DNA of 64,000 nucleotides from an uncultured Candidatus Binatia bacterium (GTDB lineage Bacteria; Desulfobacterota; Binatia; UBA9968; JAJDTQ01): the NCBI GenBank assembly GCA_965213675.1, contig OZ243916.1, positions 960,001 to 1,024,000 on the forward strand, given 5' to 3'. Both the position numbers and the translations under genes were made by a program. How positions within the stretch are numbered: the first letter of the stretch is position 1; each line of letters starts with the position of its first letter. Below the pieces are notes generated by a model. That model was not told the DNA's origin and did not search any database. It worked only from the letters and a program-made list of their open reading frames with translations. Shown piece by piece: positions 46,631 to 47,089 of this stretch.

Positions 46631-47089
46631 CTACAGCTTGTCGAGCTCGGCCAACAGGTCCTTGTTCTCGGGAATGCCGCTTTCGTAGAGCTTGGCGTAA
46701 CGCACCGCTCCCGCTTTGTCGATGATGAAAACCGCCCGCTTGGGAAAACCCTGGGGGCGCAGGCAGTCGTACTGTTCGCACACCGCCCCATGGGGCCAGA
46801 AATCGGAGAGCATCGGGAAGCTGATGCCGCCCATCTTCTCCGCAAACGCCTTGTGGGCGAAAACCGAATCCACGCTTACGCTCAGCACCTGAGCGTCTTT
46901 GGCCTCGAAGCTGCCCTTGTCAGCCTCGAAGTTGCTCAACTCCTGCTGTCAACCGCCGGTAAAATCCAGCGGATAGAACGCCAGCACGACGTTCTTCTTG
47001 CCCGCGTAGTCGCTCAGGGACACCTTTTCGTCCCGGGACATCGGCAGGCTGAAGGCGGGCGCCTTCTCTCCCACGCTTGGCATTGCCAT
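46631..47089 (-). CDS. AhpE/BCP-like peroxiredoxin, probable selenoprotein (in-frame TGA = Sec47)
   Basis: AAGGAG RBS then ATG 47089; [16 protein letters not shown]...[16 protein letters not shown](46949-46951)-QQELSNF...SVSVDS...[11 protein letters not shown]...[13 protein letters not shown] occupies the peroxidatic Cys position of PxxxTxxC. Confidence 0.88.
46903..46931 (-). promoter_or_regulatory. candidate bacterial SECIS element
   Basis: mRNA CUUCGAGGCUG-ACAAGGG-CAGCUUCGAGG, an 11-bp stem with 2 G.U pairs starting 17 nt after the UGA. Confidence 0.6.

Follow-up and report, generated by a model that had tools for sequence, protein, structure and literature searches.

The prototype of the peroxiredoxins that contain selenocysteine (Sec-Prx) is PrxU of Eubacterium acidaminophilum, and AhpE (Rv2238c) is a 1-Cys peroxiredoxin that uses cysteine (Cys) and has mycoredoxin or mycothiol as its reductant. 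The literature lists Sec-Prx (PF00578, TxxU motif) as an experimentally verified selenoprotein family (PMC13188914), counts 12 bacterial Sec-Prx and five Cys-to-Sec events by 2006 (PMC1794560), and describes a 2026 database, BSepDB, that catalogues bacterial selenoproteins at scale (PMC13326102). Here we describe a gene in a stretch of 64,000 nucleotides from an uncultured Candidatus Binatia bacterium (positions 960,001 to 1,024,000 of contig OZ243916.1), which we call the window. The segment 46631-47089, on the minus strand, is very probably an intact gene for an AhpE-like peroxiredoxin that carries Sec at its peroxidatic residue, with UGA codon 47 decoded by the organism's own SelA, SelB, SelD and tRNA-Sec. 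The gene has the following features:

46631-47089, minus strand: Sec-Prx coding sequence, 152 codons plus a TAG stop (46631-46633), with the ATG at 47087-47089, as read from the sequence, the list of open reading frames (ORFs) and the translation with TGA as U
46949-46951, minus strand: in-frame TGA, codon 47, at the peroxidatic position of P40-L-D-F-T44-G-G-U47
47098-47103, minus strand: Shine-Dalgarno sequence AAGGAG, with an 8-nt spacer to the ATG
46736-46738, minus strand: codon of Arg118, the conserved active-site Arg of peroxiredoxins, R in 53/53 of the orthologues described below and paired with the Arg of the AhpE ANRGTF segment
46778-46780 and 46763-46765, minus strand: codons of Cys104 and Cys109, conserved extra Cys residues and candidate resolving residues

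Two ORFs share one frame, the first of 46 codons (46949-47089, minus strand) and the second of 102 codons (46631-46939, minus strand), and they are parted by a single TGA. With TGA read as U the product has 152 residues, and Sec47 is followed by QQELSNF. This read-through product scored 128 bits against the AhpC/TSA profile PF00578 (cut-off 26), with residues 6-131 matched to profile positions 1-123 of 124, and because such a match spans the TGA the ORF is more than a chance occurrence. Upstream of the ATG, the orthologues compared keep GAAAGGAGA or AGGAG, and GAAAGGAGA is conserved within the genus. The initial annotation had described a 102-residue fragment whose frame runs upstream through a single TGA to an ATG at 47089, preceded by an AAGGAG ribosome-binding site, to give 152 residues, and had put the TGA exactly at the Cys of a PxxxT/SxxC motif. 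The sequence confirms the former in every part, and the latter also holds: the motif reads P40-x-x-x-T44-x-x-U47, with U47 paired with the AhpE Cys.

A PDB sequence search returned M. tuberculosis AhpE as the best solved relative (E = 4e-30, aligned over residues 1-141). The top seven distinct PDB sequences were all AhpE (Rv2238c/MT2298 or a homologue; E = 4e-30 to 6e-29), and the next match after this group was a 2-Cys peroxiredoxin (E = 9e-23). On the basis of this search, rather than of a tree, we assign the protein to the AhpE-like branch of the peroxiredoxins, as opposed to the AhpC/Prx1, BCP/PrxQ, Tpx, Prx5 and Prx6 types. It can be seen in the PDB alignment that codon 47 pairs with the peroxidatic Cys of the AhpE segment FTGIC, and residues P40, T44, U47 and R118 are invariant in 53/53 orthologues. 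The protein has in common with AhpE its length, the PLxFTGxC/U segment, the SDFWPHG motif and the conserved Arg; however, AhpE uses Cys where the protein studied here has Sec, and it is without the two extra Cys residues of the Sec clade. These are C104, present in 49/53 orthologues, and C109, present in 52/53. AhpE has Ser and Val at the two positions, and both Cys residues are also absent from the Cys-type homologues shown in the protein comparison. Cys104 and Cys109 are possible resolving residues that might form a selenenylsulfide with Sec47, and because they are conserved in the clade the Sec-Prx may not be a 1-Cys enzyme. Established peroxiredoxin chemistry predicts that Sec47, in a P40xxxT44xxU47 pocket with Arg118, would attack peroxide to give a selenenic acid, which would then be reduced, possibly via a selenenylsulfide with Cys109 or Cys104, with a thiol reductant acting last; both the substrate and the reductant are put forward here by analogy.

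With the Sec-Prx family, of which PrxU is the prototype, the protein shares the AhpC/TSA domain, the Sec at the peroxidatic position of PxxxTxxU and the swap of Cys for Sec within a widespread Cys family. It differs from PrxU in belonging to the short AhpE-like branch, in coming from an uncultured 'Candidatus Binatia' and in having a Sec insertion sequence (SECIS) that is probably distal. Identity with the PrxU equivalog was rejected, as the score against NF040737 was 77.7 bits, far under the cut-off of 270, for 152 residues against a model of 233 positions. Because Sec-peroxiredoxins with PxxxTxxU are already established, the protein is a mis-annotated addition to a known kind, from an uncultured lineage that has received little study, and earlier lists of Sec-Prx (the supplements of PMC1794560, and BSepDB, PMC13326102) may already hold members of the family from Binatia or from a 'Deltaproteobacteria bacterium'.

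Orthologues at an identity of at least 70% were surveyed in the genome of the window and in 40 related genomes, 41 in all. An orthologue with exactly one TGA was present in 24/24 genomes of the same genus and in 11/16 of the same order, and in the 32 orthologues extracted the TGA was always in the same column. A scan of named genome records gave 80 loci, 53 of them at 71-94% identity, 26 at 48-51%, and one without the column. TGA stood at codon 47 in all 53 orthologous loci, whereas all 26 distant homologues (from Acidobacteriota, Terriglobia and others) had a Cys codon in that column, TGC in 25 cases and TGT in one. The partition between Sec in orthologues and Cys in distant homologues is clean, and at the sequence level it is the classic Sec/Cys signature.

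One explanation that would not need to invoke Sec is that this is a pseudogene, a peroxiredoxin killed by a nonsense mutation at its catalytic Cys codon. Standard ORF calling does split the gene at the TGA, and public records hold only a fragment of 102-105 residues. However, the TGA occupies the same codon in 53/53 loci across 71-94% identity, and each of these has 152 uninterrupted codons with exactly one TGA and no other stop or frameshift (one further locus was left out of this count as too short). The ribosome-binding site and start are conserved, and the ratio of nonsynonymous to synonymous substitution (dN/dS) stands at 0.098 over codons 1-46 and at 0.088 over codons 48-152, figures that are only approximate because dS is saturated (mean 1.3-1.5); both halves are thus equally constrained, under purifying selection. 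The genome also has the full Sec machinery, described below, and we consider a pseudogene extremely improbable.

Still less credit can be given to a sequencing or assembly error at what is really a TGC or TGT Cys codon, for which the chance appears negligible. The TGA is also found in 52 other named assemblies and in assembly contig C12, which holds a 99% identical copy of the gene. Contigs from other runs cover codon 47 as well, namely contigs from two strains (run X3), a pair from run X5 and one RNA-library contig from X17 (46827-47090), and none of the 40 differences listed for such contigs falls at 46949-46951 (42 lesser differences come on top of these). Parts of the stretch left uncovered in X15 and X17 are uninformative, and the RNA-library contig is no proof of transcription. 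In runs X3 and X5, the contigs show paired +1/-1 indels within 8 nt at 46706-46715 (codons 125-128), with the frame restored; these lie in the variable DKxG segment and probably arise in the alignment where a few codons are substituted.

The genome encodes what is needed to insert Sec. Contig C1 (3.97 Mb), which carries the window, has selA, selB, selD and tRNA-Sec, all above curated cut-offs. The genes for selA (593 bits), selB (379 bits) and selD (377 bits) form a contiguous cluster (C1:2713784-2718389), and the tRNA-Sec scores 75 bits against a cut-off of 47 and is called tRNA-SeC with anticodon tca by ARAGORN. The selD gene itself has one in-frame TGA (Sec-SelD), followed by the hairpin UGGUGCAG / GUC / CUGCACCA with its loop at +37.

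We also considered that the UGA is decoded as another amino acid, such as Trp, or is read through independently of a SECIS. JGI metagenome proteins P0002-P0005 do have W at column 47. Yet W at the peroxidatic position would abolish catalysis, while the active-site residues are strictly conserved; TGA serves as the true stop codon of two orthologues (L042 and L046); the column is Cys in 26/26 distant homologues; tRNA-Sec, selA, selB and selD are all present; and a conserved downstream RNA structure is restricted to the TGA-bearing genes. Decoding as something other than Sec is therefore very improbable. It is the conservation of the TGA, the integrity of the orthologues, the selection on them, the machinery and the other-run contigs together that leave each of these three explanations with so little probability.

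The Sec-containing peroxiredoxin proposed in the initial annotation is supported, and observations that it had named as contrary to the proposal turned out otherwise once they were looked for. Cys/TGA pairs exist among the homologues (TGA in 53/53 orthologues and a Cys codon in 26/26 distant homologues); selA, selB, selD and selC all lie on the same contig as the gene; the other-run contigs have no listed difference at the TGA that would betray a misread TGC or TGT; none of the 53 orthologues has a further disabling mutation; and the two halves, which it had judged intact, show dN/dS of about 0.1 on either side of the TGA. It had also foreseen that pipelines would split or mis-call such a gene, as fragments of 102-105 residues and translations with W bear out. 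On the other side of the balance, besides the saturated dS, stand three points. The counts are not independent events, because the orthologue sets overlap and the genomes are related. The genome is a metagenome-assembled genome (MAG) with an estimated contamination of 8%, the gene and the machinery nonetheless being on one 3.97-Mb contig. Finally, Sec insertion itself is something that we infer from sequence.

Public records of close relatives consist of fragments of 83-105 residues that start past the TGA, for example the NCBI 'redoxin domain-containing protein', and JGI holds close relatives as full-length proteins of 155-166 residues with W at the Sec column. Such a W is seen in JGI metagenome proteins P0002-P0005 and P0039 (FTGGW, WTPVW). 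Evidently a gene caller read TGA as Trp in the JGI proteins, so that selenoproteins are hidden under a wrong residue.

Small contigs of the assembly repeat parts of C1 at about 99% identity: C12:20576-21031, C4:978-3264 and C19:73859-74284. The duplicated parts are the Sec-Prx gene, the tRNA-Sec with its adjoining molybdopterin oxidoreductase gene, and another molybdopterin gene. These duplicates fit the contamination estimate of 8% and suggest strain-variant contigs in the MAG. On C1 itself (C1:323217-325503) the tRNA-Sec adjoins a molybdopterin oxidoreductase gene (PF00384, 194 bits) with no TGA inside the domain match. In the window, a tRNA at 40154-40243 (minus strand) scores 35 bits against the tRNA-Sec model; it was rejected as a second selC, being an ordinary tRNA-Ser(CGA) with a sub-threshold score.

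Two hairpins follow the UGA inside the coding region:

46903-46931, minus strand: hairpin H1 (proximal), 11-bp stem and 7-nt loop ACAAGGG, +21 to +49 counted from the U of the UGA; proposed structured spacer
46878-46896, minus strand: hairpin H2 (distal), 8-bp stem and GUN triloop at 46886-46888 (+64 to +66); proposed SelB-binding SECIS apex

H1 (CUUCGAGGCUG / ACAAGGG / CAGCUUCGAGG) starts 17 nt past the TGA and has an energy of -15.6 kcal/mol when folded alone. H2 (ACGCUCAG / GUG / CUGAGCGU) takes up columns 56-74 at -10.8 kcal/mol, and 60 nt lie between the UGA and its loop. We made RNA alignments of 81 nt from the TGA, with 32 and then 54 orthologues, and counted pairs on the 48 distinct sequences. 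RNAalifold predicts both helices on the orthologue alignment, and there are thus conserved stem-loops downstream of the UGA, of which H2 has compensatory changes.

All orthologues preserve a 7-bp core of H1, in which columns 21-27 pair with columns 43-49, and the pair between columns 22 and 48 is CG in 19 sequences, UA in 15, UG in 13 and something else in one. The upper pairs fail in 12-28 of the 48 sequences. The loop varies, from ACAAGGG or ACAAGAG up to about 15 nt where upper pairs fail, and has no conserved G[G/U] start. When codons 48-73 of the window's gene were redrawn synonymously under the codon usage of the family (1000 draws), at least 9 of the 11 H1 pairs still formed in 76% of draws, so pairing in H1 is largely implied by the FEA...FEA peptide repeat. 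This repeat is itself specific to the Sec clade, and the interval +4 to +55 folds at -16.9 and -17.1 kcal/mol in Sec genes, against -10.8 in Cys homologues.

H2 behaves differently under the same resampling, with a perfect helix in just 6% of draws. It is paired in 100% of 384 cells among the 48 distinct orthologues, and two of its pairs show compensatory double changes (CG 39, UA 7, UG 2; and GC 40, GU 5, AU 3). In 53/53 orthologues Ala66 is written GCT and Ser70 AGC, despite 4- and 6-fold degeneracy, whereas the loop codon Val68 is free (GTT 22, GTC 20, GTG 11); the three CAA variants of Gln67 always occur together with TTG at Leu69. The codons of H2 have a relative synonymous entropy of 0.36, and those elsewhere in the gene 0.72-0.74; Cys-type homologues pair on average 4.9 of the 8 H2 positions. 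Of the two hairpins, it is H2 that shows the strongest RNA-level selection and compensatory change. The initial annotation had pointed to the hairpin 17 nt downstream of the TGA as lying at the usual SECIS distance, with the remark that its loop lacks the typical first G; that this hairpin exists, is conserved and lies within the SECIS range was borne out, while for binding of SelB the better candidate is H2. Rfam, scanned over 46600-47150 with matches up to E = 10 admitted, returned no SECIS family, only a chance snoRNA-like match.

The distal position recurs in a second family. Among 123 genomes of the order, 39 carry a paralogous Sec-Prx (FYPLDWTPTU, about 46% identical), and each copy has one TGA; the unpublished genome G361 is counted here but was left out of the other analyses. 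A phylum-wide search with a cut-off of E = 1e-40 was sparser, with the paralogue in 2/301 genomes. The hairpin of the paralogue stands at the same distance from the UGA as H2 (loop at +64) but is built on another stem, ACACCCAA / GUU / UUGGGUGU, in which three stem pairs are altered on both sides relative to H2, partly through Ala-to-Thr and Ser-to-Gly replacements. Among 31 paralogue loci, 17 pair at 8/8 positions and 12 at 7/8, the latter mostly a Met variant with the top pair opened into an AGUUA loop. In the paralogues, too, the stretch from the UGA to H2 folds into a long hairpin, whose loops are UGAA, UCU, UCAA and CUGCU. A merged alignment was built from rows chosen for diversity, 18 of the 54 for orthologues and 19 of the 29 for paralogues. 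In it 98.3% of H2 cells are paired, double changes occur at 4/8 pairs (51 cells), and H2 has a covariation score of 0.423; shuffles give 0.233, with 0/500 attaining the observed value, and slid partners give no more than 0.126.

The exceptions are L142 and L143 (genomes G123 and G336, which belong to a different family within the phylum; identity with the paralogue about 60%), which form only 5-6 of the 8 pairs and in which a proximal hairpin, CUCGC / UGGAA / GCGAG, can be seen by eye at about +22. They act as a natural control, in which H2 is lost and a proximal element stands instead, and they suggest that the SECIS has switched between proximal and distal positions in evolution. In a third family (FYVLDFTPGU) the hairpin is of the conventional proximal kind, its AGUCG loop at +22, and a distal one is absent.

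Because one SelB must read every SECIS of a genome, we compared the other TGA genes. Four further AhpC/TSA genes on C1 (574114-574500, 2958251-2958625, 1471141-1471497 and 3533667-3534062) each have one in-frame TGA, at UxxC, TxxU or a similar redox position, and proximal loops GUA, GUU, AGUU and GGUC at +20 to +30. Together with selD, whose loop is GUC, all five other Sec genes have a stem of at least 6 bp and a 3-4 nt GU loop starting at +20 to +37; such a GU-loop hairpin in that interval has a background of 2.3% among 20,000 random genome positions. For the Sec-Prx described here, the 100 nt past the TGA hold H2 as the sole hairpin of this type (background at +58 to +70, 1.2%), and the apex of the selD element, ...CAG / GUC / CUG..., matches the ...CAG / GUG / CUG... 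of H2. Among other candidate families, the genome has four matches to thioredoxin (PF00085), none with a TGA, and eight to molybdopterin (PF00384), none with a TGA inside the domain; a search for Rdx/SelW (PF10262) gave no match. A weak CMD/AhpD match (PF02627, 23.9 bits) at C1:3742644-3742838 has a TGA in CDPU (CxxU), and a CCUUGC / GGAC / GCAAGG hairpin is visible by eye at about +21, unreported by the GU-loop finder and not counted; it is a possible AhpD-like selenoprotein.

With records truncated or bearing W, and with a Sec-SelD and no fewer than four further AhpC/TSA genes that contain a TGA in this genome, the antioxidant repertoire of uncultured Binatia is systematically under-called, and the Prx-like selenoproteome of this genome is probably large and unannotated.

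The bacterial SECIS (bSECIS) consensus, as given in PMC13188914, is a loop of 3-9 nt with G and then G/U at its start, a stem of 4-16 bp, an energy of -7.5 kcal/mol or lower and a spacing of 16-37 nt; the same source notes that some bSECIS elements do not conform to the model. In E. coli, 11 nt separate the UGA from the upper hairpin, in whose loop SelB contacts G23 and U24 (PMC8659212). H2 agrees with the loop, stem and energy rules (GUG, 8 bp, -10.8 kcal/mol), and H1 agrees with the spacing rule (28 nt) but not the loop rule, so no single hairpin satisfies them all. From these comparisons, and from the selection and covariation seen on H2, we think it likelier than otherwise that H2 binds SelB and that H1 acts as a compacting spacer. 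Three things speak against H2. Its loop lies 60 nt from the UGA, beyond the canonical 16-37 nt (PMC13188914) and the 11 nt of the E. coli upper hairpin (PMC8659212), and a separate 29-nt hairpin takes up the interval. H1 is at the canonical distance, and if its top G-C pair opened it would formally satisfy a loose rule of a G in the first two loop positions. Moreover, the letters of the H2 loop are not independent evidence, because the GU is forced by a Val codon common to Cys-type peroxiredoxins.

The same selenoprotein could instead be made with H1 as the SelB-binding SECIS and H2 as an accessory that serves ribosome pausing, mRNA stability or folding insulation. The apical loop of H1 starts 28 nt past the UGA, inside the range of 16-37 nt (PMC13188914). 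At -15.6 kcal/mol H1 is stable, its 7-bp core with three pair types at columns 22-48 is present in all orthologues, the paralogous family has a long hairpin in the same interval, and the region +4 to +55 is more structured in Sec genes than in Cys homologues, as noted. However, its loop is variable in sequence and length with no conserved G[G/U] start, and the equivalent loops of the paralogues are different again (UGAA, UCU, UCAA, CUGCU). Its pairing follows mostly from the peptide, and 0/5 other Sec genes of the genome use such a loop, all having GU in a loop of 3-4 nt. It would also leave the extreme synonymous constraint on H2, and its covariation across families, without a defined function. 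We consider this arrangement unlikely, though a serious second possibility; what remains beside the two hairpins goes to a composite element or something else.

If H2 is the element that SelB reads, recoding could proceed as follows. SelB would recognise H2 (46878-46896) through its GUN loop 60 nt past the UGA. When the UGA occupies the A site, H1 starts 17 nt farther on and could stay folded with its two ends adjacent, so that the path from the UGA to the base of H2 would be about 17 + 6 single-stranded nt; in the other five Sec genes, 12-28 nt precede the SECIS stems, a range that includes this figure. Discounting the 29 nt of H1 would put the H2 loop at +35 to +37, like that of selD at +37 to +39, and SelB-GTP-Sec-tRNA-Sec on the GUN loop would reach the A site as in the canonical case. 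A count of exterior unpaired nucleotides as a measure of effective spacing ranged from 2 to 23 and was too noisy to be used. We think it slightly more probable than not that two paralogous Sec-Prx families of this Binatia order have a SelB-binding GUN-loop SECIS fixed at +56 to +74, some 60 nt past the UGA and about twice the canonical maximum, that works only with an intervening hairpin to fold the spacer.

Were this true, the new part would be a distal, spacer-assisted SECIS common to two paralogous families. In the bacterial SECIS literature searched, available in part and with the original bSECISearch paper outside it, no distal or bipartite arrangement of the H1-H2 kind was found. With H2 as a true SelB site, the spacing rule of 16-37 nt used by SECIS predictors would not be universal, and a folded spacer could stand in for a short linear distance. 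There would be a bipartite class of bacterial SECIS, a spacer hairpin plus a distal apex, that current predictors mis-assign or miss, and the residues at positions 66 and 70 (Ala/Ser in one family, Thr/Gly in the other) would co-evolve to hold the RNA stem. A distal SECIS would bear on selenoprotein gene finding, and on engineered Sec insertion where the downstream codons are fixed.

The gene is flanked as follows:

46560-46607, minus strand: terminator-like G+C-rich hairpin with a U-run, 24 nt past the stop codon
47128-47778, minus strand: NUDIX hydrolase gene, upstream, ending 38 nt before the Sec-Prx ATG
47845-48663: RluB-like pseudouridine synthase gene, beyond the NUDIX gene
45343-46449: convergent GcvT-like aminomethyltransferase gene, downstream past the terminator-like hairpin

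None of the neighbourhood genes examined suggests a dedicated reductase partner for the Sec-Prx. A simple promoter and terminator scan reported nothing at the locus, its rules missing the hairpin at 46560-46607; an 81-nt segment with this hairpin folds at -45 kcal/mol (z = -3.4).

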